From an uncultured Planctomycetota bacterium (lineage in GTDB: Bacteria; Planctomycetota; JAJSAM01; JAKLKS01): 64,000 bases of DNA. This document shows, in pieces, positions 3,006 through 61,788 of the stretch (position 1 is the first letter of the stretch; the number at the start of each line of letters is the position of its first letter). Both the position numbers and the translations under genes were made by a program. The notes beneath the pieces are model-generated. The model made no database searches. It saw nothing but the letters and a program-made list of their open reading frames with translations, and was not told the origin of the DNA. The stretch is from positions 3,014 through 67,013 of the forward strand of contig CAZSIX010000015.1 of NCBI GenBank assembly GCA_964607145.1, in the 5' to 3' direction.

Positions 3006-3138
3006 GGGGATCCTCGGCGGGGTCGGCGGAGCGGGCGGCCGGGGAGGCCGCCGCCGATGCCGAGTCTGCGCGCAGGTTGCGCGGTGGTGGAGGTTTCCGC
3101 CGCCGTCCGCGGGCGCGGGAGCCCGTCCCGAGGGGGGC

Positions 3139-37656: not shown

Positions 37657-37806
37657 GGCCGCATGGTACCGCCGCCGACCCGACTCGGCCCCCGGACCTC
37701 GCGCGGGACGGGGGTGGAGGTGGCGGGGCCGGGCCGGGGCTAGAATGCCCCCGCCATGAGGTCGCCACCGGCTGCCGAGGTGCCCCGCGGGGGCGGGGAT
37801 GTGGGC

Positions 37807-38142
37807 ATGCTTCGTCTGCTGCTGGCGGCGGGAACCCTGGCGCTGGTCCCCGCGGCGCTCGCGGGGATCCCGCCGCGGGCGGCGGCGGGTCCCGCGGCCG
37901 GCGACGTCCGTCTCCTGGTGGACCTGGAGCGCGGCGGAGAGGCGGAACTCGCCCTCCTCCCGGGCGTGGGACCGGGGCTCGCCCGCCGCATCCGCGAGGA
38001 GCGGGACTCCGGCGGCCCCTTCGGATCCGCCGAGGCGGTGGCGCGGCGCGTCCGGGGCGTGGGCGCCGCCACGGCGGCCACCTGGGACGGATGGGTCGGG
38101 GGAACGCCGGCGCCGGGGGCGCCGCGGGCGCCGCGGCGGTGA
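37807..38142 (+). CDS. ComEA-like helix-hairpin-helix DNA-binding protein
   Basis: Signal/TM MLRLLLAAGTLALVPAALAG. HhH motif LLPGVGPGLARRIREER. ATG at 37807. Confidence 0.65.
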   Translation: MLRLLLAAGTLALVPAALAGIPPRAAAGPAAGDVRLLVDLERGGEAELALLPGVGPGLARRIREERDSGGPFGSAEAVARRVRGVGAATAATWDGWVGGTPAPGAPRAPRR

Positions 38143-39044: not shown

Positions 39045-39901
39045 GCGACGCGGACGCCCTCGACGGGGAGCGCATCGCCGCCGCGGTCCGCGCCGGCGGC
39101 GGCGGGCGGCGGTTCCTGCTCCGGGACGAAGTGGGGTCCACGCAGGACCTGGCGTTCGCCATGGCGGACGAAGGTGCGCCGGACGGTTCCGTGGTCCTCG
39201 CCGATGGCCAGACCGCGGGCCGGGGCCGTCTCGGCCGGCGCTGGGAGTCGCCGCCCGGCGCGGGCCTCTGGTTCTCCCGCGTGGTGCGACCCGGCGTGCC
39301 TCCGCCGCCGGCGCCCCTCCTGGTGGCCGCCACCGCGGTGGCGCTGGCGGCGGTCCTGGAGCGGGAGACGGGAGTCGTCGCGGCGCTCCGCTGGCCCAAC
39401 GACGTGCTGATGGGCGGCCTGAAGGTGGCGGGCATGCTCATCGAGACGCGGGACTTCGACCCCGGGTCCCCCGTGCTGGTCCTCGGCGTGGGCGTGAACG
39501 TCTCCCAGGCCGAGGGCGGCCTGGCGGAGGACCTTCGCGGGACGGCGACGAGCCTCCGCGGGGCGGGGGGACGGACTCCCGACCGGACCGGCCTCCTCTG
39601 CGGCGTCCTCCGATCCCTGGACGACGGGTTCGCGGACCTGGCCCGACCGGGGGGAGCGGAGCGGCTGGACGCGGCATACGTCCGGCGGGCCGCCTTCGTG
39701 GGGGAGGCCGTGCAACTCCTCGACGGCGACGCCCCCCGGGAGGGCGTCCTCCTGGAGGCGTCCCCCGTGCGGGGAGTGCTCCTCCGGGGCGCCGTCGACC
39801 GCGGAGACATCCGCGTCCGCCCGGAGCACGCCCGTGCTCTCCGCCCGTCGGGGCCTCGCCGGGGCCGGGGTCTCGTTGACCGGCGCCCCCCCGTCGGTTA
39901 G
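39041..39901 (+). CDS. birA: Biotin--[acetyl-CoA-carboxylase] ligase
   Basis: GTGA overlap with the nadC stop. GRGRLGRRWESPPG biotin-binding motif. Confidence 0.8.
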   Translation: MSDADALDGERIAAAVRAGGGGRRFLLRDEVGSTQDLAFAMADEGAPDGSVVLADGQTAGRGRLGRRWESPPGAGLWFSRVVRPGVPPPPAPLLVAATAVALAAVLERETGVVAALRWPNDVLMGGLKVAGMLIETRDFDPGSPVLVLGVGVNVSQAEGGLAEDLRGTATSLRGAGGRTPDRTGLLCGVLRSLDDGFADLARPGGAERLDAAYVRRAAFVGEAVQLLDGDAPREGVLLEASPVRGVLLRGAVDRGDIRVRPEHARALRPSGPRRGRGLVDRRPPVG

Positions 39902-39957
39902 CGTGTCCCCGGCCTGCGGGCAGAGAGTCGGTCGCACTACCACGGAGGGGAAGGATC

Positions 39958-40551
39958 ATGAAGGCACTGCTCATGGCGGCTTGCGGGGGACTGGTCCTGA
40001 CCGCGTCGGCGCTGCTGGCGCCCGCCGCTCCGGCGCCGGAGCCGCTGCCGCTGGACGGGAGCCCGTGGACGGGGCCGGTCGACGCCCGGGTCAGGCTCAA
40101 GTTCGCCAAGGACGGCGTGGCCTTCACGACCTCGCCGACGATCGAGGTCGCCACCGGGGACTTCGTGGTCGCGGACCAGTCCGACGGCCGCGTCTTCTTC
40201 ACCGGGAGCAACTTCGGCGGGTGGAGCGGTGCGATGCACGCGCGCAGCGGCGACCCGCGGTTCTACGACTTCATCCTGGATGACGGCGACGGCGGAGTCC
40301 AGGAGAAGGGCGGCTACCCCGGCGCGCTGCGGGACTGGGCCGCCGGCGTCTACGGCGACGCGGCGGGGTTCGGCGTCGCCGTGACGGAGACGTCCGGAGA
40401 CGGCTCCCTTCGCCTGCGGAAGAGGGACACGGGGGTGAAGATGCGCCAGACCAGCCGATCCTCGGGGGACGCGTTCTACGACGGCGCCACGCGCCGGTTC
40501 AAGGGGAGGTTCTCCTTCTTCGGCGCCCTGGACTCGTTCGCGGAGAACTAG
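39958..40551 (+). CDS. Secreted hypothetical protein, paralog 1 of a tandem three-member family
   Basis: SD GGAGGGGAAGG before ATG. Signal peptide MKALLMAACGGLVLTASALLAPAAP. C-terminal TRRFKGRFSFFGALDSFAEN. Confidence 0.7.
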   Translation: MKALLMAACGGLVLTASALLAPAAPAPEPLPLDGSPWTGPVDARVRLKFAKDGVAFTTSPTIEVATGDFVVADQSDGRVFFTGSNFGGWSGAMHARSGDPRFYDFILDDGDGGVQEKGGYPGALRDWAAGVYGDAAGFGVAVTETSGDGSLRLRKRDTGVKMRQTSRSSGDAFYDGATRRFKGRFSFFGALDSFAEN

Positions 40552-40662
40552 CCCGCGTCGACGGAGGCCCCGCGCGGCGCGGTTTCCGTGTGCCGGGCTG
40601 CCGCCGACTGCGGTAGAGTCCGCTCAGAAGGGGTCGTCGCAGCGCGTGAGCATGGGAGGTGC

Positions 40663-41277
40663 ATGATGCGTATCCTGTCGAAGCTTGTCGTCGGCGCGAT
40701 CGTGATCGGCGCCGCGGGGCTGCTCGCTCCTGCGGCCGACGGGCTGCACGTGGTCCTGGACGGCAGTTCCTACTCCGGCGCCGTCCGGACGCGAACCCAG
40801 ATCCGGGTGAAGCGGTCGGGCTTCCAGTGGCCCGCCGAACTGCCCCGCTCGGGCCAGATCGTGTCGAACCGATCCACGGGCCCCGGCTACTCCGCGTCGC
40901 TGAGCTTCTCCGGCGGAAACGTTTCGTTCAGCAGTGCCGCGCTGGGCGGCGTGACGGTCCCGCTGACGGAGCGTCCCGGCCAGGATCGCTACTACGACTT
41001 CACCGTCGCCTCGGGCCTCTTCGCGGACGGAGCCGCCACGCTGGTGACGACCACGGCGCCCGCCATCGGAACGACCTCGACCGTCGTCATCGAGACCATC
41101 GACGGCGTGGGCCTCGTGCGTGGAGATTGGAGCCTCGACACGGTCATGTTCCGCCACCGGTTCCGGTTCACCGGCACGGCGCCCTACCAGTTGCTCCCGA
41201 AGGACTCCGCGAAGACCCGCCGGTTCAAGGGCAAGACGTCGATCTCCGGTGTCCTCCCCAACTCGTTCGCTCCCTAG
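40663..41277 (+). CDS. Secreted hypothetical protein, paralog 2
   Basis: SD GGGAGGTG before ATGATG 40663. Signal MMRILSKLVVGAIVIGAAGLLAPAA. C-terminal TRRFKGKTSISGVLPNSFAP. Confidence 0.7.
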   Translation: MMRILSKLVVGAIVIGAAGLLAPAADGLHVVLDGSSYSGAVRTRTQIRVKRSGFQWPAELPRSGQIVSNRSTGPGYSASLSFSGGNVSFSSAALGGVTVPLTERPGQDRYYDFTVASGLFADGAATLVTTTAPAIGTTSTVVIETIDGVGLVRGDWSLDTVMFRHRFRFTGTAPYQLLPKDSAKTRRFKGKTSISGVLPNSFAP

Positions 41278-41294
41278 GTGATCCCGGGGAGGGA

Positions 41295-41323
41295 TTGACT
41301 CGGTGGGCGCGGCTGCGTAGACT
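41295..41323 (+). promoter_or_regulatory. Sigma-70-like promoter TTGACT-N17-TAGACT upstream of paralog 3
   Basis: Seen directly: ttgact at 41295-41300, a 17-nt spacer, tagact at 41318-41323, about 75 nt before the ATG at 41399. Confidence 0.4.
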
Positions 41324-41398
41324 GGCTACGGAAAGCGGAAGACTGTGGTCGCCGGGGGCAGGCCCGCCGGCACGTAGGAACTCGGAAGGAGGACGGCG

Positions 41399-41926
41399 AT
41401 GAAGGCATTGGTTGTGGCTCTCTGTGGCGCTCTCGTCATCGGGGCGGCGAGCGTGCTGGCGCCGGCCACGCACGACAACATCGTGCTCGACAACACGTTC
41501 TGGGCCGGGACGATCTACGGCCGCGCCAAGATCTCGACGAAGCCCGGCGTGGACGTGAAGACGACGGACTGGATGAACTCCATGGACATCTCCAGCGGCT
41601 CGATCTCGTTCTCCTCGAGCAACTGGGGTTCCTGGTCCGCCTCCACCAGCCCCCGCGAGGGCAAGATCCGGTTCCACGACTTCTGGCTGAACAACGGCGA
41701 GGGCGAGCTCCAGTCGTGGGCCGCCAACGCCATCGGGAACATCACCGGGTTCTACACCTCCATCGACTCCGCCGAGGGCAGCGGCTACGTCCGCGGCAGC
41801 TGGGACTTGGGCAACATCCTCATGCGGTCCAGCACGCGCGTCCGCGGGTTCGGCACGGTCAACGGTCAGCCGCGGACCTTCCGCGGGAAGCTCTCCATCG
41901 ACGGCATGCTGTTCAACAACGACTAG
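41399..41926 (+). CDS. Secreted hypothetical protein, paralog 3
   Basis: SD GGAAGGAGG before ATG. Signal MKALVVALCGALVIGAASVLAPA. C-terminal RTFRGKLSIDGMLFNND. Visibly lower GC than its neighbours. Confidence 0.7.
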   Translation: MKALVVALCGALVIGAASVLAPATHDNIVLDNTFWAGTIYGRAKISTKPGVDVKTTDWMNSMDISSGSISFSSSNWGSWSASTSPREGKIRFHDFWLNNGEGELQSWAANAIGNITGFYTSIDSAEGSGYVRGSWDLGNILMRSSTRVRGFGTVNGQPRTFRGKLSIDGMLFNND

Positions 41927-41942
41927 CCTCCGATCGCGATCC

Positions 41943-41980
41943 ACAACGGGGCACCCCGTTCGCGCGGGGTGCCCCGTTCG
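41943..41980. terminator. Two tandem palindromic hairpins (CGGGGCACCCCG / CGGGGTGCCCCG) after paralog 3
   Basis: acggggcaccccgttcgcgcggggtgccccgttcga seen directly. Confidence 0.4.
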
Positions 41981-42049: not shown

Positions 42050-44143
42050 ATGCGGGGCTGGTGGTCCAGGGTGCCGCGCGACGCCAAGGTCGCCGCGGCG
42101 CTGGCGGGGCTGGTGCTGCTGCAGACCGTCGCGCTGGCGGCCTTCGGATTGGCCGTCGCCCGGTCACAGCGAGCGGAAGCGGAACGGGATCTCCGGGCCA
42201 TCGCTGCCCTCTCCCTGGCCCGCGGCCTCGGTGAACCGGCCGCCGCGGCGCTGGCCCGGACGGAGGTCGCCCTGTCCCGTGCGGCCCGGGCCGCGGGCAC
42301 CCCCGCGGCGCCGCCCGATCTCCCCGCCGGACTCGTCGTCCGGCTGTTCCTCCTGGGCGCGGACGGGGCCGTGATCGACGGGGAGGGGCGGATGGTGGTC
42401 CCGCCCCCGCCCTCGCCGGGGGCCGCCCGCTCACCCGCCGTGGACCGTCTCGGGTCGGTGGAGGCCGTCGCCATGCGCGAGGGGGGCCCGGCCGACGCCG
42501 CCCGCGCCGCGTGGGCCGCGGTGGAGTTCGAGGACGACCCGTCCGTGGCGGTGCCGGGACTCCGCATCGTCGCCCGTAACGCGCTCCGTGCGGGGGACGA
42601 CACGCTGGCGCTGCGGGCGGCCTCCCGCATCCTCGAGCGCTGGCCGGAGTTCCGGGTGGAGGGGGAGTATCCGGACGGACCGGGCGCCGCCGCCGTCGCG
42701 GCATCCATCCACCTGCGCCGGCTCGAGGCCGGCGCCCCCGGGGCGGAGGAGGCCTTCGTCGGGGCGGTGGCGGAGTGGCGCCGGACGCTGCTGGCCGGGG
42801 ACCTTCCCGCGGCGGCCGCCCGGGGGGAGACGCAGGCGGTGCAGGAACTCGCCGCCGCGGGCAAGCCCCGGCTCTCCGTGGAGGCGGGGGCGGCGATGGA
42901 GGCGGCGCTGGCCGCGCTGGGGCGCGCCGACGACGAGGCGGCGCCGCTCCGTGACGGCTCCCTCCGCGCGCGACTGGCGGCGGGCGCGCGGGGCGCCCGG
43001 GAGGCGTGGGTCGCCGGGGTCGACGGGCGCGCGCGTCCGCTCCTCTTCCGCGCCGTGGGCCGCCCCGACGGATCCGCCGTCGCGTTCCTCGTCGACCCGG
43101 AGGCGTACCTGGCGGCCGCGGTGCTGCCGCTGCTGCATGGCGCCCACCCGCGGGAGGGGACCGCCGTCCGCCTGCTCACCGCCGATCGCGCGCCCCTCGA
43201 CGGCGGCGGCGCGCCACCGGCGCGCGACGGCGTGCTCGCTTCCGTGGGCGTGCCGCTGCCGATGGCGCGGGCCGTGGGGGAGACGGTCCTCTCCGATCCG
43301 GGGCTCCTCGATCGCGAGGCGGCCCGCTCCCGCGGAGTGGTGGTGCTCGTCTTCGCGCTGGCGGCGGCGGCCCTCGGGCTCGGCGCCGTCCTCGTCCTGC
43401 GCATGGTCCGCACGGAGGTCCGCGTGGCGCGCATGCGCGCCGACTTCGTGGCCTCCGTCTCCCACGAACTGAAGACCCCGCTGACGAGCATCCGCATGTT
43501 CCTGGAGACGCTGCGGGAGGGACGGACGCGCTCCGAGGAGGAGCGGCAGGAGTGCCTCGACGTCGTCGACCGGGAGGCGCAGCGCCTGGGCCGCATGGTG
43601 GAGCGCGTGCTGGAGTTCTCCCGCGTCTCCGCCGGCGTCCGCCGCCTCCGGCCCGAGGCGGCGGATCCGGCGGCGGTCCTGCGGGACGCGGCGGACGCGT
43701 TCCGCGGGCATCTCGTGAACGGCTCCTGCGACTTCCGCATGGAACTGGCCGCGGGGCTTCCCGTCCTCCGCCTGGACCGGGACGCCGTGACCGAGATCGT
43801 GCTGAACCTCCTCGACAACGCGTGGAAGTACACCCCCGCGACGGGCAAGCGCATCGTGCTGCGCGCACGCCCCGCGGACGGCGGCGGCGTCCGCGTGGAG
43901 GTGGAGGACAACGGCCCCGGGGTGCCCGCGGGGGACCGCGAGCGCGTCTTCGAGGAGTTCTTCCGCGGCGAGGATCCCCGCACGGCGTCGGCGGGGGGCA
44001 CGGGTCTCGGCCTCGCCCTCGTGCGGCGGCTGGCCGAGGCCCACGGCGGGAGCGCCGCCGTGGAGAGCGCACCCGGCGGCGGGAGCCGGTTCGTCGTGAC
44101 GCTGCCCGGCGGCGGGGGCGAGGCAGGGGAGGGACGGATCTGA
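42050..44143 (+). CDS. Sensor histidine kinase (large periplasmic/N-terminal region, HisKA + HATPase_c)
   Basis: H-box VSHELKTPLTSIRMF. N-box LLDNAWKYT. G-boxes VEDNGPGVP and GGTGLGLALV. ATG verified at 42050. Confidence 0.85.
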   Translation: MRGWWSRVPRDAKVAAALAGLVLLQTVALAAFGLAVARSQRAEAERDLRAIAALSLARGLGEPAAAALARTEVALSRAARAAGTPAAPPDLPAGLVVRLFLLGADGAVIDGEGRMVVPPPPSPGAARSPAVDRLGSVEAVAMREGGPADAARAAWAAVEFEDDPSVAVPGLRIVARNALRAGDDTLALRAASRILERWPEFRVEGEYPDGPGAAAVAASIHLRRLEAGAPGAEEAFVGAVAEWRRTLLAGDLPAAAARGETQAVQELAAAGKPRLSVEAGAAMEAALAALGRADDEAAPLRDGSLRARLAAGARGAREAWVAGVDGRARPLLFRAVGRPDGSAVAFLVDPEAYLAAAVLPLLHGAHPREGTAVRLLTADRAPLDGGGAPPARDGVLASVGVPLPMARAVGETVLSDPGLLDREAARSRGVVVLVFALAAAALGLGAVLVLRMVRTEVRVARMRADFVASVSHELKTPLTSIRMFLETLREGRTRSEEERQECLDVVDREAQRLGRMVERVLEFSRVSAGVRRLRPEAADPAAVLRDAADAFRGHLVNGSCDFRMELAAGLPVLRLDRDAVTEIVLNLLDNAWKYTPATGKRIVLRARPADGGGVRVEVEDNGPGVPAGDRERVFEEFFRGEDPRTASAGGTGLGLALVRRLAEAHGGSAAVESAPGGGSRFVVTLPGGGGEAGEGRI

Positions 44144-44835
44144 TGGAGACGATTCTCGTCGTGGAGGACGATCCCAGCATCCGGCTGGGGCTCTCCCGCA
44201 ACCTCTCCTTCGAGGGGTTCCGCGTGGTGGTCGCGTCGGACGGGCAGGAGGGGCTGGAGGCGGCGTTCCGGGAGCGGCCCGATCTCGTCCTGGTCGACGT
44301 GATGCTGCCGGGAGCGTCGGGGCTCGAGATCTGCCGCGCGCTCCGGCGCCACGACGCGACGCTCCCCATCCTGATGGTGTCGGCGCGGACGCAGGAACCG
44401 GACCGCGTGCGCGGACTCGAGATCGGAGCCGACGACTACATCACCAAGCCCTTCAGCGTGCGGGAACTGGTGGCCCGTGTCCGCACCGCGCTCCGCCGTC
44501 GCCGCGCCATGGCGGGGGAGGAGGAGCCGTTCCGCTTCGGCGAGTGCGAGGTGGACTTCGCCGCCCGCGTGCTGCGCGTCCGCGGGACCGAGGCGGACTG
44601 CTCCTCCAAGGAGTTCGAACTCCTCCGCTACCTCGTCCGCAACCGGGGGAAGGTGCTCACGCGGGACCAGATCCTGGCCCGCGTCTGGGGGTACGACTAC
44701 GAGGGCACCGCGCGCACCATCGACAACTTCGTGCAGAAGATCCGCCAGAAGATCGAGGACGACCCGGTGAACCCGCGCTGGCTGAAGACCCTGCGCGGCG
44801 TCGGCTATCGCTTCGATCCGGAGAGCGTCGGATGA
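44143..44835 (+). CDS. OmpR-family DNA-binding response regulator
   Basis: TGATG overlap with the kinase stop. Receiver domain (ILVVEDDPSIRLGL...LVLVDVMLPG). Winged-helix output domain (LTRDQILARVWGYDYEGTARTIDNFVQKIRQKI...LKTLRGVGYRF). Confidence 0.9.
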   Translation: METILVVEDDPSIRLGLSRNLSFEGFRVVVASDGQEGLEAAFRERPDLVLVDVMLPGASGLEICRALRRHDATLPILMVSARTQEPDRVRGLEIGADDYITKPFSVRELVARVRTALRRRRAMAGEEEPFRFGECEVDFAARVLRVRGTEADCSSKEFELLRYLVRNRGKVLTRDQILARVWGYDYEGTARTIDNFVQKIRQKIEDDPVNPRWLKTLRGVGYRFDPESVG

Positions 44836-47606
44836 CGACGCGGCGCGCCGTCCGCGGTCTCCCCTCGCTGCTGCTCTTCGCGGCCGCCCTCGCCGCGCCC
44901 GGCGCCGCGGGCGCCGCGGAGGGCGACTCCGCCGACGCCGCCGTGGCGGCGCGGTACCGCGCGCTCCGCCTCGAGCAGGTGCTGGGGGACCTGGAGGGCG
45001 CCGCCGACGCCTGGGCCCGCGCCGCCGCGGCGGCGGATCCCGAACTGCGCGCGGAGGCCCGCCTCCGCGGCGCCGCCGTCCTCGAGCGGCTGGGGCGCAT
45101 GGAGGACGCGCGGGAGATGCTGCGCGCGCTGGTCGCCGACCCGGCGCCTCCCCCCGGCCCGCGGATCGAGGAGGCCCGCCGCAGGCTGGAGGCGCTCACG
45201 CGCGCCGCGGCGCCGGGCACGCGCGTGGACAGCCCCGAGGTGGCGGCCCTCCGCGAGGAGCGCCTCGCCCTGGAGGAGGAGGCGCGCGGGCTCCGCCGCC
45301 GCCTCGACGAGGCGCTCCGCACGACCGCCGACGTCGAGGACCTCCGCATGGAGATCCGCACGCGCGACGCGGACCTCGCGGACCTCCGCGCCCGGCTCCT
45401 CCGCGCGGAGCGCGCCGATCGGGCCGCCGCCGGCGCGGCGACGCCGGGCGAGATCGAGGAGGACCGCCGCCGGGACCGGGAGCAGGCGGTCTACCTCTCC
45501 GCGGAGTACGCGCGCCTCGGCCGGGACTTCCACGCGGCGGGACGGTTCGAGGATGCGCGGCGGCTGCTGCGGGAGGCCGTCGACCTGGACCCGGGCAACG
45601 AGCGCGCCCGCGAACTGCTGGAGCGGGCGACGGCCCCGCTGCCGGAGCGGGAGGGGCTCGCGCGGGGCATCCTCGAACTGCTGGCGCTGGAGCACTCCCT
45701 CCTCGTGGAGCAGGTGCGCGGGGAGGCGGAGGAACTCCTCCGTGCGGGTCGCGACGCCGTGGCCGCCGGGCGCGCCGCGGAGGGGGCCGACCGGTTCGAG
45801 GCGGCCCTCCGCCGGCTGGACGCCCGCCCCGCGGCGCTGGACGCGCTGGACGGGCTGCGCGGGGACCTCGCGCGGAGGTTCGAGGAGGCGAGCCGCGCCG
45901 CGGGGACGCCCCGCGCGGCGCCGGAGCGGCCCGCGGGGGCCGGCGGGGACGCCCGGCTGCCGGAGGCGCTGCGGCAGATCCTCGAGTCCGCCGGCGCGGC
46001 GGGGGAGACCGGGGGCGCCGCGCTCCGCGTCTTCCCCCTCGCCCCCGTGGCCGCGGCGCAGGCGGCCGCGCTCCCGCCCAGCCCCGCTCCCCACCGCCGG
46101 CCCGCGGGGCTCGTGGTCCTCCCCGACGTGCCTCCGGCGGCGGGCGCCTTCCGGGCGGCGATCCGCGGTGCCGTCGAGCCGGAGGCGTGGCGGGCCCCGG
46201 GAGCCGTGCTGGAGTGCGTGGGCGGATCCCTCGTCGCGCGGGCCGGTCCGCGGGCGCTGGCGGCGCTGGAAGCGACCATGGACGCGTCGGGTCGCCCGCC
46301 GCTCCGCTCCGTTCCGCTGGAGATCCTCGTCGTCCCCTGCGCGCCGGAGGCCCTCGCCGCCGCGCTGCGGGATGCGGGTGCCCGCTTCTCGGGGATGGAG
46401 CCGGGATCCGGTGCCGTCGCCGTGGACGCCGGCGCCGTGGCGGTCCTCACGGCCCTGGCGGGGCCCGCGGGGCCGTCCCTGTCCGCCGCCGTGCGCGCCG
46501 CCGAGCGGCGGGGCGCCGTGGTCGCGACGCTCCCGCCGGAGGGCGGCGCGGGCCCGCCGGAGGAGTGCGCGGGCCTGCGCGTGGAAGCGGTCGCGTGGTG
46601 GCTCGGCCCCGGCCGGCTCGCCGCCGGAGCCGTCGTCTCCGCCGCCGTGGAGGCGGTGCCCGGAGTCTCCGCGGCGCTGGGAAGGGCCACGCTCTCGCGC
46701 AGTCGAGCCGCCGGAGGGGGCGACGTCCGGCCCGGGGGCGCGCTCGTGTTCCCCGGGGTCCCCATTCCCGGCGCGGAGCCGGGCTCGCCCCCGCGCCACG
46801 GGGCGGTCCTCGTCGTGGTCGGGGACGTGGCGGCGCCGGTCCCCGCGGCCGTCGCCGGCGAGGGGGCCGCGACCCCCGTGGACCTGGGCGATCTGCCGCG
46901 GCGGGGAGTGGACGCGGCCGGTCCGCTGGCCCCGGCGGGGGAGGACGGCGTGGCGGCGCGCATCGAGGCGCTCCGCGCGTGGCTCCAGATGCGCGCCCCG
47001 GGCGGCACGCGCGTGCGCCTCGCCGGGACCGGGCTCGCGGTGGAGGGGGGCCCGGCGGCGGCGGCCGTGGTGGTCGAGGACCTGGGCCGCCTCGCCGCCG
47101 ACGGGACACCGGTGCCGCTCCTGGTCCGCGTCCACTCCCTGGGTCCCGCGGCGGAGGCCGCCCTGCTGCGGGATCTCCCGCTGCTGTCGCCCTCGGGCGA
47201 GGGGGATCTGCGTTTCGCGGTCCTGCAGGGTCGCGTGCGGGATCGCGTGAGGTTCCTGCTGGCCGGCGACGCGGAGGGGGCGCCGGCGGGCGCTCCCGTC
47301 GCGGCGCTGGCCCAGGCGGCGCAGCGAGCGGTGTTCGCCCGCGTGGAGGAACTGGGGGCCGGGGGCCGGCCCGCCCGCCGCGGCGTCGAAGTCGGCGTGC
47401 GCCCGTGGCCCGGCGATCTGCCCGACGAGCGCTGGATCTGGGCCGACGTCACGCTCCTCCTCGCCGGCGAGGCCGGGCCGCGGCGGGAGCCGCCCGTGAT
47501 GACGGCGATCCGCCGGAACGCGTCCCTGCTGCTGGTGGGCCTCCGCAGTCCCTTCGGCGATCCGGCGCGGACGCGGCTCGTCGTGCTCGTCGAGTGGGGG
47601 TCCTAG
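44832..47606 (+). CDS. Large (924 aa) secreted hypothetical protein, coiled-coil/TPR-like N-region
   Basis: ATGA overlap with the response regulator stop. Signal MTTRRAVRGLPSLLLFAAALAAPGAAGAA. The antisense ORFs 44805..49064 and 45491..47452 are Arg/Pro junk. Confidence 0.6.
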   Translation: MTTRRAVRGLPSLLLFAAALAAPGAAGAAEGDSADAAVAARYRALRLEQVLGDLEGAADAWARAAAAADPELRAEARLRGAAVLERLGRMEDAREMLRALVADPAPPPGPRIEEARRRLEALTRAAAPGTRVDSPEVAALREERLALEEEARGLRRRLDEALRTTADVEDLRMEIRTRDADLADLRARLLRAERADRAAAGAATPGEIEEDRRRDREQAVYLSAEYARLGRDFHAAGRFEDARRLLREAVDLDPGNERARELLERATAPLPEREGLARGILELLALEHSLLVEQVRGEAEELLRAGRDAVAAGRAAEGADRFEAALRRLDARPAALDALDGLRGDLARRFEEASRAAGTPRAAPERPAGAGGDARLPEALRQILESAGAAGETGGAALRVFPLAPVAAAQAAALPPSPAPHRRPAGLVVLPDVPPAAGAFRAAIRGAVEPEAWRAPGAVLECVGGSLVARAGPRALAALEATMDASGRPPLRSVPLEILVVPCAPEALAAALRDAGARFSGMEPGSGAVAVDAGAVAVLTALAGPAGPSLSAAVRAAERRGAVVATLPPEGGAGPPEECAGLRVEAVAWWLGPGRLAAGAVVSAAVEAVPGVSAALGRATLSRSRAAGGGDVRPGGALVFPGVPIPGAEPGSPPRHGAVLVVVGDVAAPVPAAVAGEGAATPVDLGDLPRRGVDAAGPLAPAGEDGVAARIEALRAWLQMRAPGGTRVRLAGTGLAVEGGPAAAAVVVEDLGRLAADGTPVPLLVRVHSLGPAAEAALLRDLPLLSPSGEGDLRFAVLQGRVRDRVRFLLAGDAEGAPAGAPVAALAQAAQRAVFARVEELGAGGRPARRGVEVGVRPWPGDLPDERWIWADVTLLLAGEAGPRREPPVMTAIRRNASLLLVGLRSPFGDPARTRLVVLVEWGS

Positions 47607-54869: not shown

Positions 54870-55241
54870 TCACGGGCGCGGCCCCGCGGAGCGCCGGAGT
54901 TCCTCGCCCCTTCGGCGATGGGCCTCGCGCTGCGCGGCGGTGAGGCCCGACCAGGCGGCGTTCAGGTCGCAGGCGCGGACCCAGGCTCGCGCGCGGTCCC
55001 ACCGGCGGCGCGCGTACTCCCGTCGGCGCCGGCAGGGAACGCCGCAGTACCGCCGGGACCGCCGGCCGCGCGCCGATGGCGCCCCGAGCGGCGCCCCGCA
55101 CGCCGCACACGCCGGGACCGCGCTTGTCTCCACCGGCCCCCCCTCCCCTTGTTCCGCCGGCGCGCACGCGGGCTTGCGCGCCCGGTCCCGGGGCCGAGAC
55201 CGGTCACGAACGACCTCCCCCCGGGGCTCCGGCCGCTTCAT
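54870..55241 (-). CDS. Small basic zinc-ribbon protein (CxxC...CxxC); tentative
   Basis: ATGA overlap with the primase-helicase stop. PACAACGAPL...RRYCGVPCRRRREYARRRW. High Arg content makes this uncertain. Confidence 0.35.
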   Translation of the reverse strand: MKRPEPRGEVVRDRSRPRDRARKPACAPAEQGEGGPVETSAVPACAACGAPLGAPSARGRRSRRYCGVPCRRRREYARRRWDRARAWVRACDLNAAWSGLTAAQREAHRRRGEELRRSAGPRP

Positions 55242-57382
55242 CCGCCGCACCCGGTCATGCGGGGCTCCTCGTCCGCCGTCGGCCCGGCCGCCGCCGTCCC
55301 GGCGAACAGGATTTCCTCCCATCCCCTCCGCGAGGGACGGGAGACCCGCCCCTCCGCTCCGCCCGTGTCCTCCCGTCCCTCTTCGAGGGAGGGACGGGAG
55401 GACGGGACTCCCGTCCCGGGGTCCGGGGACGGGACCGGGACGGGCGGGACGAGTTCACCGCTCGCGACCGCGTAGCGGTAGGGGCTCCCGGGCTTGCCGG
55501 TGCCCGTGCGGACGATGGCGCCCCGGGAGAGGAGGGCCTTGAGCGCGCGGGCGGTGCACTCCCGCTTGCCGCCGATGCCGGCGCAGACCTCGTCACGGGT
55601 CGCGGGTTCGCGCGTGGCGCGCAGGTGGTCGAGCGTGCGCTCCGAGGCCGCGGCCGCACGCACCTCCGCGGCCCCGCCCTGGCGGAGGACGCTCGCGCCG
55701 CGTAGTTCGAGAATCTGCTCGTCGAGCGGGGTCTCCCGGAACCGGCTGTACGCCTGGAGCGACCGGAACGTGTCCGACGGCATCTCCTTCGCCCGCCGGA
55801 GTTCCAGGACGACATCCATCGCGCCCGCGATGGCGGACGACCCGCGCGCCCCCTGGCCCTCCTCGGCGTCGGACTTGCGCAGGTGGTGGATGAGGAGCAC
55901 CGCCAGGTCCTCCCCGGCCGCGTCGAGCACGGCCCCGAGGGCGTCCTGCATCGCACCCGCGTCCTTCTCCGCGTCGCGCCCGAAGCGCCCCCACGCGGTG
56001 AGCGTGTCGATGCAGAGGAGCACCGCGCGGATGCGGCGGGCCTCGCGCACGCCCTCGAGGAGGAAGTCGCGGAGGGAGAACTCTGGGTGCATCTCGCGGC
56101 GGGTGAGGAAGCGGGTGTCGCGGAGGCCGAAGCGCGATGCCTTCTCGTGGATGGTGGCCGGCCCCTCCTCCGAGAGGACGACCGCCGGCCCCGCCGCCGT
56201 CGCGAACCCGGCGAACGGCTCGCCGCGCTCGAGGGCGCGGAGGATGGCGAACACGAACGTCGACTTGCCGGCCTTCGGATGGCCCGACAGCAGCGTCACC
56301 GCTCCGCGCGCGAGGAGGCCCTCGACGATCCACGGGACTCCCTCCGCAGCCTCCTCCGCGAGGTCCTCCACGCCGCGCCAGCGGAGAAGGCCCGGGGCGT
56401 CGCGGACGGCGCTCGCGAGCGCATCGCGGCGACCGGCGCGGAGCGCGTCCGCGACGTCCTTCGCCCCGTCGAGGTCGGCGAGGACGGCGTCCCATTCGAG
56501 GAGGCGAACGGCGGCCCCGGCGGCGCGGAGATCGCGTGTGGCGCGCTCCATGCCCTCGGCCCCGGCGCGGTCGTCGTGGAGCGCGAGGACCACGTCGCGG
56601 CCGCGGAGGGCGCGGGACCACTCCGCGTCGAACCGGAGCGCCCCCGGGAGGGCCAAGCGGACGTGGTCCCGGGCGACGTCCGCCGCGACGACGGCGAGGA
56701 GGTCGTGGCCACCCTCGAGCAGCAGGACCGGCGCGTCGGGCTCCCGCGCGAGCCGGACCACCTCGCCGAGGACGCCGCCGCGGGAACCGGGGAGGTCCTC
56801 CTCCTTCGAGTGCCGCCCAGGGCGGACCTTGGCGCCAACGACCCCGCCGGCCGGCGCGAACAGCGGGAGGACGAGGCGCGCGGGTTCGCCGCGCTCGTCG
56901 GGGAGCACGCCGCCGCCGATGGCGGCGAGCGCCTCGGGAGTCCCGTCGTACCGGGCGAGGAGGTCCCGGACATCGGCGTCATCCCGGCGATCCCGAAAGT
57001 AGATGCGCGCGTCCTCGACGACCTGCTGGAACCGGCCGGGCGCCTGGGCCGGTTCCGGCTGCAGCTCCGGGGCGCCGAAGTACCTCCGCTCCAGTTCCGC
57101 GGCGGCGGCGGCCGATCCGTCGAGCCCGCGGACCTCGACGGCCAGCGCGAGGAGCCCTCCCGCACCGAACCCGCAGACCCGGCACTCGGCCGACGCGCCG
57201 TCCTTCGCGACGACGAGGGAGGGGTGGCGGTCGCCGTTGCGGTGGCGCTCGCCCCGGGGGCAGCGAACCGCCGCGCCCGGGCGGGGGGCGTCGCGAAGGC
57301 CGATGAGCTCCCCAAGGACCCTGGGCGCGAGGCCCGCGTCTCGGAGCCGATCCACGACGCTCGGCCAGGCGCGGGGGCTCAC
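55238..57382 (-). CDS. Replication primase-helicase fusion: CHC2-like zinc finger + Toprim primase domain + AAA_25/RepA-like (RecA-fold) ATPase
   Basis: GTG at 57382 with GGAGGAG SD. Zn-finger CPRGERHRNGDRHPSLVV...CRVCGFG. Toprim-like VLLLEGGHDLLAV...VVLALHDDRAGAEG. Walker A LLSGHPKAGKSTF, Walker B AVLLCIDTL, and LAVLLIHHLRKSD. Confidence 0.75.
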   Translation of the reverse strand: MSPRAWPSVVDRLRDAGLAPRVLGELIGLRDAPRPGAAVRCPRGERHRNGDRHPSLVVAKDGASAECRVCGFGAGGLLALAVEVRGLDGSAAAAAELERRYFGAPELQPEPAQAPGRFQQVVEDARIYFRDRRDDADVRDLLARYDGTPEALAAIGGGVLPDERGEPARLVLPLFAPAGGVVGAKVRPGRHSKEEDLPGSRGGVLGEVVRLAREPDAPVLLLEGGHDLLAVVAADVARDHVRLALPGALRFDAEWSRALRGRDVVLALHDDRAGAEGMERATRDLRAAGAAVRLLEWDAVLADLDGAKDVADALRAGRRDALASAVRDAPGLLRWRGVEDLAEEAAEGVPWIVEGLLARGAVTLLSGHPKAGKSTFVFAILRALERGEPFAGFATAAGPAVVLSEEGPATIHEKASRFGLRDTRFLTRREMHPEFSLRDFLLEGVREARRIRAVLLCIDTLTAWGRFGRDAEKDAGAMQDALGAVLDAAGEDLAVLLIHHLRKSDAEEGQGARGSSAIAGAMDVVLELRRAKEMPSDTFRSLQAYSRFRETPLDEQILELRGASVLRQGGAAEVRAAAASERTLDHLRATREPATRDEVCAGIGGKRECTARALKALLSRGAIVRTGTGKPGSPYRYAVASGELVPPVPVPSPDPGTGVPSSRPSLEEGREDTGGAEGRVSRPSRRGWEEILFAGTAAAGPTADEEPRMTGCGG

Positions 57383-57576
57383 GACCTCTCCTCCCCGACG
57401 CCCTCGACCTGCACGGTGGCGACGGGAACTCCCCGCTCGTTCGCCTGGAGCCAGGTGCAGCCGTTCTCGTGGGCCAGCTGCACCCCTCGCACGGCACCGG
57501 CCCGGACCCGCGCCCGAGTGGTCGCCCCGCACCCCGGGCACCGGACCACCGCGACCGACTCGTCCCTGTCCGCCAT
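57379..57576 (-). CDS. Small zinc-ribbon protein (65 aa), first gene of the integrase-primase operon
   Basis: SD GAGGAGG 4 nt before ATG 57576 (verified). RCPGCGATT...NGCTW. The stop abuts the primase GTG. Confidence 0.6.
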   Translation of the reverse strand: MADRDESVAVVRCPGCGATTRARVRAGAVRGVQLAHENGCTWLQANERGVPVATVQVEGVGEERS

Positions 57577-57807
57577 CGAGCCTCCTCAGCCGATCGCCCC
57601 CGCACGGCTCCGTCGAGGCTCTGCCCTCACGGAGGCTCGTGCAACCTGTGCGACGGTCTCGAGCGTCGGTCACCGGGAGCGTCGTTCAACACCCGGAGCT
57701 GATCGGGCGTCCTGCTCCGTCAGACTCCGGCAACCCACCCGGGGCGGCGGCTTGCGTCGGTTACCTTCTGGCGTTCTCTCGTGGGATGGACCATCAGGGC
57801 GAACGAG

Positions 57808-60642
57808 ATGACCAGCGAGGAGGAGACCCGGCAGCGGCTCATCGACCGCCAGTTGCGGCTGGCGGGGTGGGACCTCCGCGACCCGACCCAGGTCGTCGAG
57901 GAGCACGAGATCGACCTGGTCAAGGCGGGCGTCGTTCCGCCGTTCGCGGCAGAGGTCGCCCCCGAGCACTACGGGAAGCAGTACGCCGACTACGCGCTGC
58001 TCTGCCGGGGAAAGGTGCTCGCTGTCCTCGAGGCGAAGAAGACCTCCAAGGACGCGCAGCTCGGGCAGGAGCAGGCGCTGCAGTACGCCGAGAACATCCA
58101 GCGACTGCAGGGGGGACGGGTGCCGTTCGTGATGTACTCGAACGGCCACGACTACTTCCTCTGGGAGTCCGACCGTTATCCTCCTGTCGCGATCCTCGGG
58201 CTGCCGAGCCGGTCGGACCTCGAGTGGATGGACCAGAGGCGGGAGAGCCGGAAGCCACTTTCCGTCGAGCTCATCAACCCGACCATCGCCGGGCGTGACT
58301 ACCAGATCGCCGCAATCCGCGCCGTCCTCGAAGGGCTGGAGGCCCGGCGGCGCAAGTTCCTGCTCGTCATGGCCACCGGGACCGGGAAGACCCGCGTGGC
58401 CATGGGGCTCATCGACGCCCTCCAGCGGGCCCACTGGGCGAAGCGGGTGCTCTTCTTGGTCGATCGCATCGCCCTGCGCGATCAGGCCATCGACGCGTTC
58501 CGCGAGAACCTCCCCGACAGCCCGTACTGGCCGCGGACTGAGGGGAAGTCCGTGGAGGCGGAGTGGCGCGGGGACCGTCGGCTCTACTGCACGACCTACC
58601 AGACGATGCTGAACCTCATCGAGTCCGGGAGGACTCCCGAGACGCGCCTCTCGCCCCACTTCTTCGACCTCGTCATCGCCGACGAGAGCCACCGGTCCAT
58701 CTACAATACGTACAAGGCGGTCCTCGACTGGTTTTCCGGCATCCGTCTCGGTCTCACCGCGACACCGCGCGACCACATCGATCACGACACCTTCGCGATC
58801 TTCGACTGCGAGGCGCAGGACCCGACGTACGCGTTCACCTACGACGAGGCGATCGCCCACGAACCGCCGTACCTCTGCGGCTTCCGCGTCCTGAAGGTCC
58901 GCTCGAAGTTCCAGCTCGAGGGCATCCAGGGAGGGACGCTCCCGGAGCCCGTGCAGAAGAAGCTGATCGCGGAGGGGAAGGACCCCTACGAGATCGACTT
59001 CGAGGGGAGCGAGCTTGAGAGGAAGGTCACGAACTCCGGGACCAACGCGGTCATCGTCCGGGAGTTCATGGAGGAGTGCATCAAGGACCCGACGGGGACC
59101 CTTCCCGGGAAGTCGATCTTCTTCGCCATCTCCAAGGACCACGCCCGGCGAATCGCCGCGATTTTCGACCAGCTCTACCCCGAGTACGCCGGACGGCTGG
59201 CCCGCGTCCTGGTCTCCGAGGATTCTCGCGTCCATGGCAAGGGCGGGCTCCTCGACCAGTTCAAGCACAGCGGCATGCCCCGGGTCGCGCTCTCCGTGGA
59301 CATGCTCGACACCGGCATCGATGTGCCGGAGGTGGTGAACCTCGTCTTCGCCAAGCCGGTGTTCAGCTACACGAAGTTCTGGCAGATGATCGGTCGCGGG
59401 ACCCGCGTCCTCCCCGCGCCGGGGAAGAGGAAGTCGTGGTGCCCGGAGAAGGACGAGTTCCTCATCATCGACTGCTGGGGGAACTTCGACTTCTTCAAGA
59501 TGAAGCCCGAGGGGAAGGAGCCCAAGCCCCAGGTCGCGCTCCCCGTGCGGCTCTTCCACGCGAGGCTCGACCTCCTCGACGCCGGGACCTCGAGTGGGCA
59601 ACCTGACGCCACGGCCGTCGCCGTCGAGGGGCTGCGAGCGGACCTCGCCGCGCTCCCGGAGCAGAACGCCATCGTCACCGGGAGCCGGAGGGACCTCGAC
59701 CCCGTCCTTGCCGACGAGTTCTGGCTCCACCTGACGCCCACGAAGGTCGCCGCGCTGCGCAGTTCGGTGGCCCCGCTCCTCCGGGCGCGGTCGGTGCTCG
59801 AACCGAAGGCGATGCGGTTCGAGATGGAGGCGGTCCAGCTCCTGTGCGCCCGGCTCGGGAGCGCCGGGGTCCTGCTAGAGGGACTGCGCGACAGCCTGGT
59901 CGAGCAGGTCGCCGAACTCCCGCTGTCCGTCAACACGGTGGCGGAGGAGCGGGCTTCGGTTGAGCAGGCGCTTCGGCCCGGCTGGTGGGACGAGACGGCG
60001 ATCCCGGAGGTCTGGTCCACCACCAAGAGGCTCGCGCCTCTCATGCGGTTCCGGCAGGCCCCTCGCGATCCGCTCCTGCGCCTCGACCTGGCCGACCTCA
60101 CGGTGATCAAGGAGGGTCTGGAGTTCGGGCCGGGTCACGAGGGCCGCACGAGCACCGGGTTCCGGGCTCGCGTGGAGGCCTACGTCCGTTCGCTCGTCGC
60201 GACGAACCCGGTGATGGCCCGGATCGCGGCCGGCGAGACCCCGGGGGAGGTCGAGCTGGCGGAAGTGGCGGAGATCCTCCGTCAGGGGGATCCGGTCGTC
60301 ACCGAGGACGCCCTCCGGCGTGCCTACGACCTCCGCGCAGCGGGGCTGACGCAGCTCCTCCGGCACGTGCTGGGGTTGGAGCGCCTGCCCTCCTGGGGGG
60401 AAGCGGTCACCGCCGCCGTCGACGGGTTCATCGCGAGGCACACGACTTTGACCCAGCTCCAGATCCGGTTCCTCCAGACCCTCCGCACGTTCCTTCTACA
60501 GAACCGCCAGTTCGATCGGGGCGCCCTCCTCGAGCCCCCCTTTACCCAGCTCCACCCCAGCGGCGCCCGCGGGGTCTTCTCCGGGCCCGAACTCCAGGAG
60601 GTCGTTGCCCTCGCGGAGGGGCTGGTCGCCGGAAGGGGGTAG
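57808..60642 (+). CDS. HsdR-family helicase/nuclease (type I restriction R subunit-like: HSDR_N nuclease domain + ResIII/DEAD-DEAH helicase)
   Basis: N-terminal EEETRQRLIDRQLRLAGW...YADYALL...VLAVLEAKK (Mrr/HsdR_N-like). Walker A LVMATGTGKT. DEAH-like LVIADESHRS. GLTATP. Helicase C MLDTGIDVPEVVNLVF...QMIGRGTR. An in-frame GTG at 57781 is the alternative start. Confidence 0.75.
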   Translation: MTSEEETRQRLIDRQLRLAGWDLRDPTQVVEEHEIDLVKAGVVPPFAAEVAPEHYGKQYADYALLCRGKVLAVLEAKKTSKDAQLGQEQALQYAENIQRLQGGRVPFVMYSNGHDYFLWESDRYPPVAILGLPSRSDLEWMDQRRESRKPLSVELINPTIAGRDYQIAAIRAVLEGLEARRRKFLLVMATGTGKTRVAMGLIDALQRAHWAKRVLFLVDRIALRDQAIDAFRENLPDSPYWPRTEGKSVEAEWRGDRRLYCTTYQTMLNLIESGRTPETRLSPHFFDLVIADESHRSIYNTYKAVLDWFSGIRLGLTATPRDHIDHDTFAIFDCEAQDPTYAFTYDEAIAHEPPYLCGFRVLKVRSKFQLEGIQGGTLPEPVQKKLIAEGKDPYEIDFEGSELERKVTNSGTNAVIVREFMEECIKDPTGTLPGKSIFFAISKDHARRIAAIFDQLYPEYAGRLARVLVSEDSRVHGKGGLLDQFKHSGMPRVALSVDMLDTGIDVPEVVNLVFAKPVFSYTKFWQMIGRGTRVLPAPGKRKSWCPEKDEFLIIDCWGNFDFFKMKPEGKEPKPQVALPVRLFHARLDLLDAGTSSGQPDATAVAVEGLRADLAALPEQNAIVTGSRRDLDPVLADEFWLHLTPTKVAALRSSVAPLLRARSVLEPKAMRFEMEAVQLLCARLGSAGVLLEGLRDSLVEQVAELPLSVNTVAEERASVEQALRPGWWDETAIPEVWSTTKRLAPLMRFRQAPRDPLLRLDLADLTVIKEGLEFGPGHEGRTSTGFRARVEAYVRSLVATNPVMARIAAGETPGEVELAEVAEILRQGDPVVTEDALRRAYDLRAAGLTQLLRHVLGLERLPSWGEAVTAAVDGFIARHTTLTQLQIRFLQTLRTFLLQNRQFDRGALLEPPFTQLHPSGARGVFSGPELQEVVALAEGLVAGRG

Positions 60643-60729
60643 TCGAGGCCGATAAAGGGGTACTCTCGACAACCAGATTACCCCTTTACAGCTGGCCCTT
60701 GCCCGGATAGGCTACGCCCCCGAACGGCC

Positions 60730-61788
60730 ATGCACTCCCTCACACCCGCCTACCTCGACCGCCTCTCCTTCTCTGCGGAGGAGGCCGCCGCTCTGTCCGC
60801 CCTGATGGAGATGCGCGGGCGCCAGGAGCTCTTCGTCAACCAGAAGCCCGAGGTACTGGAGTCCCTGCGCCAAGTCGCCATCATCGAGTCCACGGAGTCG
60901 AGCAACCGCATCGAGGGCATCTCGGCGCCCCGGGACCGGATCGAGGCCATCGTCCTCCGCCCCACGGAGCATCGGAACCGCTCCGAGCAGGAGATCGCCG
61001 GCTACCGGGACGCGCTCGCCCTCATCCACGAGTCCCACGAGCACATGCCGCTCACGGTGAACGTGCTCCTGCAGATCCACCAGATGCTCTACCGCTACCA
61101 CCCCGGTCCCGGGGGGCGGTTCAAGCTCGCGGACAACCGCATCGACCACTACGACGGGAAGGGGAACCTCGTCCGTGTCCGATTCCGTCCCACTCCGGCA
61201 TTCGAGACCCCGGCCGCCATGGATGCGCTCGTCGCGGGGTATCAGGATGCGAACGGCGCCCGGGCGCTGCACCCGCTGGTCGCGGTCCCCCTCACGATCC
61301 TGGACCTGCTCTGCATCCACCCGTTCACGGACGGGAACGGCCGCGTCGCGCGTCTGGCGACGCTCCTGCTCCTCTACCACCACGGGTTCGCGCTCGGGCG
61401 CTACATCAGCCTCGAGCGCATCGTGGAGGAATCGAAAGAGGGATACTACGAGACGCTCGAGGCCAGTTCGAAGGGCTGGCACGAGGGGAAGCACGACGTC
61501 CACCCGTGGCTGAACTACTTCTGGGGCGCGCTGACGCGGGCGGGCCGCGAGTTCGAGGAGCGGGTGGGAAAGGTCGCCGACGCCCCGGGGACCAAGAGCG
61601 AGATGATCCGCGCCGCGGTGATGCGTAGGATCGGCCCGTTCTCCAGTGCGGCGATCGAGAAGGACTGCCCCGGCGTGAGCCACGAGCTTGTTAGGCGCGT
61701 TCTGCGTTCCATGAGAGACGAAGGGATCATCGCGGTTCAAGGACGTGGGCGCGGGGCCAAGTGGCTGCGGTCTGCAGAATCGAGGTGA
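60730..61788 (+). CDS. Fic family protein (Fic/DOC AMPylation-type motif) with C-terminal winged-helix
   Basis: Canonical Fic motif HPFTDGNGRVARL. ATG at 60730. Confidence 0.85.
   Translation: MHSLTPAYLDRLSFSAEEAAALSALMEMRGRQELFVNQKPEVLESLRQVAIIESTESSNRIEGISAPRDRIEAIVLRPTEHRNRSEQEIAGYRDALALIHESHEHMPLTVNVLLQIHQMLYRYHPGPGGRFKLADNRIDHYDGKGNLVRVRFRPTPAFETPAAMDALVAGYQDANGARALHPLVAVPLTILDLLCIHPFTDGNGRVARLATLLLLYHHGFALGRYISLERIVEESKEGYYETLEASSKGWHEGKHDVHPWLNYFWGALTRAGREFEERVGKVADAPGTKSEMIRAAVMRRIGPFSSAAIEKDCPGVSHELVRRVLRSMRDEGIIAVQGRGRGAKWLRSAESR

Follow-up and report, generated by a model that had tools for sequence, protein, structure and literature searches.

A 64,000-nucleotide stretch of DNA from an uncultured planctomycete (positions 3,014 to 67,013 of contig CAZSIX010000015.1, assembly GCA_964607145.1; hereafter the window) carries three consecutive genes on the plus strand, here called P1, P2, and P3, which are diverged tandem paralogues homologous over their full length. 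They appear to belong to an undescribed and very narrow family of exported proteins, predicted to fold as small β-barrels that we tentatively place in the periplasm or outside the cell. Pairwise BLASTP comparison gave an E value of 4e-28 with 33% identity for P1 and P3, 1e-17 for P2 and P3, and 2e-9 for P1 and P2, and the alignments run end to end from the signal peptide through the last residues, so that the tandem paralogy proposed in the initial annotation holds well beyond the signal peptide. The mature-domain alignment of the trio contains 30 invariant positions, and conservation is strongest in the blocks LDG-x-x-W-x-G, R[FY][YH]DF, G-x-G-x-V-R-G-x-W, M-R-x3-R, and a C-terminal RxF[KR]G-x2-S-[IF]-x-G-x-L...F. 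The C-terminal and R[FY][YH]DF blocks also recur in the DNA as direct repeats, with spacings of 726/655 and 729/682 nt, respectively. A profile search of the six-frame translation of the window found no fourth paralogue.

The GC content of the window is extreme (75% overall, 76 to 84% around the trio, and up to 0.86 in local windows), and spurious stop-free open reading frames (ORFs) of several hundred codons consequently occur in all six frames, making ORF length uninformative as evidence for a gene. Real genes were instead recognized by a GC content at third codon positions (GC3) above 0.85 together with a lower value at second positions (GC2). The coding frames of P1, P2, and P3 have GC3 values of 0.95, 0.90, and 0.96 with lower GC2, and the longer stop-to-stop ORFs that contain them still give 0.92, 0.88, and 0.95. 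Because of these GC3 values, and because orthologues described below keep both the reading frame and the tandem order, we regard all three as real genes with host-like codon usage. Their coordinates and ORFs were confirmed as first annotated, at 197, 204, and 175 aa, as were the purine-rich Shine-Dalgarno (SD) sites read in the sequence (GGAGGGGAAGGA for P1, GGGAGG for P2, and AAGGAGGA for P3). The P2 start more likely lies at the second ATG (position 40666, giving 203 aa), since this codon is 6 nt from the SD and the first ATG only 3 nt; the counterpart of P2 among NCBI proteins, P0003, has 203 aa and thus begins at the second ATG, and the NCBI counterpart of P1, P0001, is identical to it. 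The mature proteins, which contain no cysteine, have masses of about 16.7 to 19 kDa. P3 does have a lower overall GC content than P1 (0.653 versus 0.72), as had been remarked, but the different origin that this seemed to imply is rejected because of its GC3 of 0.96: the deficit is confined to the first two codon positions (GC1 of 0.49 and GC2 of 0.52) and reflects a composition rich in Ser, Asn, Thr, Ile, and Trp.

The family comprises six sequences from three sources. In addition to the trio, it includes P0004 (174 aa), an orthologue of P3 with 56% identity; P0008, an 81-aa C-terminal fragment of a P2 orthologue; and P0010 (204 aa), a distant homologue detected at an E value of 1e-5. P0008 (L002:3-266) and P0004 share L002, a JGI contig of 934 bp, where the tandem order of the window (P2 first, then P3) is kept. 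P0010 is a lone gene on L001, a contig of 3.5 kb, and is flanked there by a STAS-domain gene and dprA. A word-indexed search of 5.8 billion clusters returned the trio proteins alone, all from one NCBI contig of 74,106 bp, and word-indexed protein searches overall returned only family members, in seven clusters in all. An exhaustive HMMER search with a mature-domain profile against 1.84 billion cluster representatives added the three further relatives, which corresponds to three relatives beyond the trio in about 15 billion public proteins. Nine other HMMER matches were long repetitive proteins with summed weak matches; three of these were inspected, and the set was rejected. No additional locus came to light in the GTDB species genomes, the JGI metagenome contigs, or IMG/VR.

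No family model in Pfam, NCBIfam, PHROGs, or PADLOC matched the trio significantly, and the best library matches were at chance level (Blc, E of 0.09; phrog_11310, E of 0.008; E1-E2, E of 0.005; DUF5766, E of 0.24). Pfam returned no family at an E value of ≤10 for P1 to P3 or P0010, and DUF5766 was its only match to P0004, at 12.1 bits against a cutoff of 27.4 bits. A profile search of PDB sequences gave just Ser-rich Fab heavy chains at E values of ≥0.085, which we treated as chance. The topoisomerase I (TopA) encoded in the window shares 75% identity with its counterpart in a Planctomycetota metagenome-assembled genome (MAG) of JAKLKS01, and the next-best matches (46 to 55%) are mostly from Planctomycetota MAGs (the third-ranked being labeled as class Planctomycetia), with some from Verrucomicrobiota. 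The host is thus placed in Planctomycetota, and the GTDB representatives do not include the host itself. The trio was initially suggested to form an uncharacterized and lineage-restricted family, and with six members and no well-known family assigned by any profile search, we likewise conclude from these comparisons that it is real but very narrow and apparently restricted to a GC-rich lineage of Planctomycetota.

All family members with a complete N terminus begin, as judged by eye, with a K/R-containing n-region followed by 15 to 17 hydrophobic residues. In four of the five (P1, P2, P3, and P0004), the n-region reads MK or MMR..K and the hydrophobic core is followed by L-A-P-A, so that residues −3 to −1 are A-P-A. 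All three copies of the trio show n-, h-, and c-regions with an A-x-A motif, in agreement with the signal peptides first annotated there, and they have the features expected for Sec-dependent export and signal peptidase I (a K/R n-region, a hydrophobic core, and A-x-A at −3/−1). We infer that the proteins carry a cleavable Sec-type signal peptide with a signal peptidase I site after LAPA. A cysteine is present at residue 9 of P1, P3, and P0004, where it is preceded by MAA, VAL, and GAL (so that residue −1 is A, L, and L, respectively), and P2 and P0010 have no cysteine. A lipoprotein reading was rejected, as this cysteine comes too early, is preceded by unsuitable −1 residues, is absent from two members, and does not form a usable lipobox, [LVI][ASTVI][GAS]C.

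AlphaFold2 models were generated for mature P1 with 3 sequences (pLDDT of 62.9 and pTM of 0.56) and mature P3 with 6 sequences (pLDDT of 60.1 and pTM of 0.50). Both models are all-β apart from one helix, consistent with the β-strand-like body noted at the outset, and they agree on an antiparallel meander, with 8 strands in P1 and 9 in P3, that includes a single 13-residue amphipathic helix in the middle of the chain and three long C-terminal strands of ∼16 residues. In both, the C-terminal RxF[KR]G..S[IF]xGxL motif forms the last long strand, with the same alternation of hydrophobic and polar residues as in the other strands. These models suggest that the conserved tail most likely serves as the final strand of the fold rather than as a targeting tag, and we propose that it is conserved because it holds core residues and two invariant glycines. 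The β-augmentation once suggested for this segment can be retained only in an intramolecular sense, in that the last strand pairs within the fold.

Foldseek comparisons of the models mostly returned 8-stranded up-and-down barrels at the top of the lists. Among these weak matches were soluble barrels (YwiB, the NHBA and fHbp C-domains, PsbO, and avidin) and membrane barrels (Ail, OmpW, NspA, and OmpA, along with phage outer-membrane-protein β-barrel/Opa-like structures). The best match among viral models (BFVD), and the sole match with an E value below 1e-3, was the lipoprotein p58 of phage Mx8 (E of 2.7e-4; TM score of 0.42 to 0.49). We consider a small meander barrel a reasonable inference for the fold class from the models, and membership of any specific barrel family is not supported. 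The trio resembles lipocalin- or calycin-type barrels (Blc and YceI; YwiB/DUF1934 and Mx8 p58) in being small, exported, and predicted to form an 8-stranded meander with a helix, and in having a conserved aromatic-Gly motif where the first strand begins (LDG-x-x-W-x-G). The weak matches on this side include the YwiB fold (E of 1.9e-3) and the NCBIfam Blc model, the latter at 12.4 bits against a cutoff of 267 bits. Unlike lipocalins, however, the trio has no significant sequence or profile match to Blc, YceI, or Lipocalin_2/4/5; its helix is central and does not follow strand 8; its strands are much longer; and the family motif is LDG-[ST]-x-[WY]-x-G, that is, W-x-G, in place of the G-x-W of lipocalin strand A. 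The trio also lacks a lipobox, whereas Blc and p58 are lipoproteins. The C-terminal domains of NHBA and fHbp are 8-stranded barrels of similar size and gave the lowest root mean square deviations among the PDB matches (7.6 to 8.8 Å for NHBA-C and 9.7 Å for the fHbp chimera 5nqz, with TM scores of 0.31 to 0.44 and Foldseek probabilities of mostly 0.82 to 0.98), but the E values are above 1e-3 and the identity is about 10%, and those barrels are domains of Slam-exported lipoproteins whereas the trio proteins stand alone and are not lipoproteins.

Whether such a barrel would be soluble or embedded in a membrane can be approached through the distribution of conserved residues. In a per-column analysis, one face of the predicted strands is hydrophobic and conserved (L7, I16, I22, V46, F48, L74, I99, V108, I117, F138, I144, and L148), also holds the invariant glycines G14, G104, G140, and G146, and has a high content of Gly, Ser, and Thr. 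Polar residues that vary among the members occupy the opposite face, apart from five basic positions that are conserved (R19, R109, R120, R124, and K139). Membrane barrels would generally be expected to have the reverse pattern, with a variable lipid-facing side. Because the hydrophobic, glycine-containing face is the conserved one and the polar face is variable, we favor a soluble core over a lipid-facing surface and lean, at slightly less than an even chance, toward a soluble periplasmic or secreted barrel in which both the hydrophobic core and an arginine face are conserved. Several observations weigh against this preference. The confidence of the models is low to moderate (pLDDT of 60 to 63 and pTM of 0.50 to 0.56, from only 3 to 6 sequences), Foldseek returned nothing below an E value of 1e-3 against the PDB (TM scores of 0.2 to 0.44), and no TM score exceeded 0.5 in any Foldseek comparison. 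Integral outer-membrane barrels were as frequent as soluble ones among the Foldseek matches, and predicted strands of 15 to 16 residues are long for a soluble lipocalin-type barrel. A sequence relation to Mx8 p58 was tested by hhalign against the family profile and rejected (probability of 0.3%), and we found no ligand, partner, or conserved gene neighborhood that would hint at a function.

Of the alternatives, the one that survives best is that these are small integral outer-membrane β-barrels of the OmpX/Ail/OmpW type, inserted by BAM, with the C-terminal strand acting as a lineage-specific β-signal. Planctomycetota are diderms, and a host of this kind would accommodate such proteins. The signal peptide, the mature size of ∼150 to 180 aa, and the 8 to 9 antiparallel strands of 10 to 16 residues joined by short turns are all shared with OmpX/Ail, OmpW, NspA/Opa, and the OmpA N-domain, and Ail, OmpW, NspA, short OmpA, and phage outer-membrane or Opa-like proteins recur among the weak Foldseek matches. 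A conserved aromatic residue also lies near the C terminus, with a glycine at −4 in P3, P0004, and P0008 (G-x-L-F). The consensus for the outer-membrane β-signal is LGLGYRF, in which hydrophobic residues alternate and the terminal residue is aromatic (PMC10629564). The C termini of the trio (...IDGMLFNND, ...ISGVLPNSFAP, and ...FFGALDSFAEN) do not fit this canonical signal: the conserved F is never C-terminal, being followed by 1 to 3 residues, and its register breaks the hydrophobic alternation of the strand. Barrels that are not prototypical carry other C-terminal motifs (PMC10629564). No outer-membrane-protein model of Pfam or NCBIfam matched the trio even at an E value of ≤10, the putative lipid-facing side would be the conserved Gly/Ser/Thr-rich one with the variable side being polar, and the 13-residue helix interrupts the meander. 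Strand number is also at issue, since outer-membrane barrels are expected to have an even number, with a hydrophobic outer face girdled by aromatic residues, and the P3 model has 9 strands, although the P1 model has 8 and the pLDDT of both is only 60 to 63. Taken with the conservation pattern, these points make an outer-membrane barrel unlikely, if still a real contender.

For the soluble barrel that we favor, we hypothesize the following course. The Sec signal peptide would direct export across the cytoplasmic membrane and be cut by signal peptidase I after LAPA, and the mature domain would then fold into an up-and-down β meander of 8 to 9 strands, probably a closed or nearly closed barrel, with the amphipathic helix between the short N-terminal strands and the three long C-terminal ones. 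The hydrophobic, glycine-rich face would point inward, leaving the Arg/Lys cluster on the outer face to bind an anionic partner, potentially the head group of a lipid or lipopolysaccharide (LPS), a polysaccharide, or another protein. We think that the three copies have specialized, as their isoelectric points differ widely (Table 1), and that the remaining surface is fast-evolving. The trio would be transcribed independently of the two-component system encoded downstream, with P3 expressed from its own conserved promoter.

Table 1. Coordinates and properties of the trio, its predicted regulatory elements, and the genes that follow it (window positions unless a contig is named).
Feature	Coordinates	Strand	Description	Basis
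P1	39958..40551	+	197 aa; mature 174 aa, pI 5.2; predicted signal peptide residues 1-23 (MKALLMAACGGLVLTASALLAPA)	ORF, GC3, homology
P2	40663..41277	+	204 aa from first ATG; mature ~180 aa, pI 10.1; predicted signal peptide ends LLAPA	
P3	41399..41926	+	175 aa; mature 152 aa, pI 6.7, Trp-rich (7 W); predicted signal peptide residues 1-23	
P1 signal peptide	39958-40026		predicted	
P2 signal peptide	40663-40734		predicted	
P3 signal peptide	41399-41467		predicted	
P0004 signal peptide	L002:400-468		predicted	
P1 C-terminal block	40492..40539	+	RRFKGRFSFFGALDSF; last predicted strand, mature residues 154-168; DNA repeat family D1	
P2 C-terminal block	41218..41268	+	RRFKGKTSISGVLPNSF	alignments
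P3 C-terminal block	41873..41914	+	RTFRGKLSIDGMLF; last predicted strand, mature residues 134-149	
P1 candidate promoter	39876..39904	+	TTGACC-17-TAGCGT; overlaps birA stop codon; lead only	
P3 sigma-70-like promoter	41295..41323	+	TTGACT-17-TAGACT	
Inverted repeat	41945..41978	+	perfect 14 bp, 6-nt gap; just after P3 stop codon	
Histidine kinase	42050..44143	+	same strand as trio	
OmpR-type regulator	44143..44835	+	start at 44143 (TGATG overlap), not 44140	
TPR/coiled-coil protein	44832..47606	+	924 aa, signal peptide; ATGA overlap with regulator	

The promoter upstream of P3 is the sole sigma-70-like match between positions 39700 and 42200, where 0.0 are expected in shuffles. The JGI contig L002 keeps both hexamers (as TTGACT-18-TAGACT) and a GGGAAGGAGGACG SD site while the rest of the spacer has diverged. 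Because these elements are conserved although the intervening sequence is not, the comparison gives good support to this site as a real promoter of P3, in keeping with the annotation of a separate promoter for the third copy. The candidate upstream of P1 has a −10 hexamer with only 3 of 6 matches and hence went unreported by the promoter scan. An imperfect 23-nt inverted repeat (39863-39914; 78% complementary with a 6-nt gap) spans the end of birA and overlaps this promoter-like site, and could be a birA terminator or an operator. The perfect inverted repeat after P3 folds as RNA into a 15-bp stem of −44.3 kcal/mol (z of −3.6), and 0 of 200 shuffles folded as well; it has no U-tract, so the terminator scanner did not call it, and in this high-GC organism it probably terminates transcription of the trio. 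The three upstream regions, when aligned, revealed no convincing shared operator, Rfam gave nothing above chance between positions 39000 and 42500, and the intergenic regions folded no better than shuffles.

Immediately downstream and on the same strand lie genes for a histidine kinase, an OmpR-type regulator, and a 924-aa protein with a signal peptide, and their stop and start codons overlap, in line with the coupling of the 924-aa gene to the two-component system that was initially described. The 924-aa protein matches none of the NCBIfam models, and its Pfam matches are limited to weak TPR models. From this arrangement, the trio could be read as accessory or target proteins of the OmpR-type system, for example, periplasmic envelope-stress proteins acting with the 924-aa TPR protein. 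The cpxP gene, which adjoins cpxRA, offers an analogy, and neither P1 nor P2 has a good −35 hexamer, as is often the case for activator-dependent promoters. Set against this are the complete and conserved sigma-70-type promoter of P3, the generic nature of the kinase and regulator, which score below every equivalog cutoff, and the setting of P0010, which is flanked by the STAS gene and dprA and has no two-component system in its vicinity. We do not assign the trio to the two-component system because the strong hairpin separates P3 from the kinase gene and because P0010 lacks such neighbors; the link suggested by proximity is thus unsupported, and we consider this role improbable. P0010 lies directly upstream of dprA (L001:2-2762), and the trio lies ∼2 kb downstream of a ComEA-like HHH protein gene (37756-38142); this sharing of neighbors related to DNA uptake is probably a coincidence. 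Farther along the window, an AAA_25 ATPase (55238-57673, minus strand), an HsdR type I restriction R subunit (57781-60639), and a Fic/DOC protein (60730-61785) form a cluster (55238-61785) that may be a defense or mobile island.

The signal peptide and the mature domain differ markedly in their rate of change. P3 and P0004 are 87% identical in the signal peptide and 51% in the mature domain, and for P1 and P3 the corresponding values are 61% and 32%. Nei-Gojobori estimates of dN/dS for P3 versus P0004 were 0.10 for the signal peptide (23 codons) and 1.0 for the mature domain, with 0.9 for the P2 fragment, although these values are rough, as the GC3 bias compresses dS and so inflates dN/dS, the signal peptide is short, and there is a single orthologous P3 pair. 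Exported proteins usually show the opposite, with a signal peptide less conserved than the mature part. This contrast points either to an exposed surface that evolves fast or diversifies or to an extra role for the N-terminal segment. The near-neutral values for the mature domain, the diverged isoelectric points of the paralogues, and the temperate-phage lipoprotein Mx8 p58 as the best viral structural neighbor would also suit fast-evolving exposed proteins engaged in an antagonistic interaction, such as phage-receptor masking, superinfection exclusion, or competition and immunity between bacteria. We regard this as quite improbable, since dN/dS from one orthologous pair is inflated by extreme GC3, the profile comparison relates the family in no way to p58, no mobile-element or toxin genes adjoin the trio, and its codon usage is host-like.

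Finally, the idea that the C-terminal tail is a detachable signal for sorting or attachment by a dedicated secretion or anchoring system, raised in the initial annotation and seemingly favored by the tail being the best-conserved block and lying at the extreme C terminus in all six members, is highly improbable: both models place it within the core sheet as a strand of 15 to 16 residues, conservation is just as high in the internal R[FY]xDF and MRxxxR blocks, the neighboring genes examined include none for a sortase, an exosortase, or secretion, Pfam and NCBIfam hold no sorting-domain family that matches the trio, and, where a sorting signal would consist of a motif with a hydrophobic helix and basic tail (as in PEP-CTERM, LPXTG, or GlyGly-CTERM) or of a C-terminal domain (CTD) of ∼80 aa, the last 20 residues here are an amphipathic strand with 1 to 3 polar residues, with no linker before it, no hydrophobic helix or basic tail after it, and a length far short of the CTD of the type IX secretion system (T9SS).

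On balance, the trio seems to be one more version of a familiar kind of protein, the small exported β-barrel, and nothing yet points to an unusual mechanism. The combination of a conserved signal peptide with a near-neutral mature domain is nevertheless an odd pattern. It is conceivable, though decidedly unlikely, that the trio belongs to a class of planctomycete envelope proteins with a new structure, either a non-prototypical mini outer-membrane barrel with its own C-terminal insertion signal or a hetero-oligomeric complex of secreted barrels whose exposed surface is under diversifying selection; were either so, the unusual conservation of the signal peptide would point to a targeting step of its own. 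For now, the trio by itself raises no major question. Planctomycete envelopes remain poorly understood, and a large part of the exported proteome lacks annotation. The trio adds to this proteome a clean, undescribed exported family, with real genes and a strong conserved promoter, that could enter the family databases.

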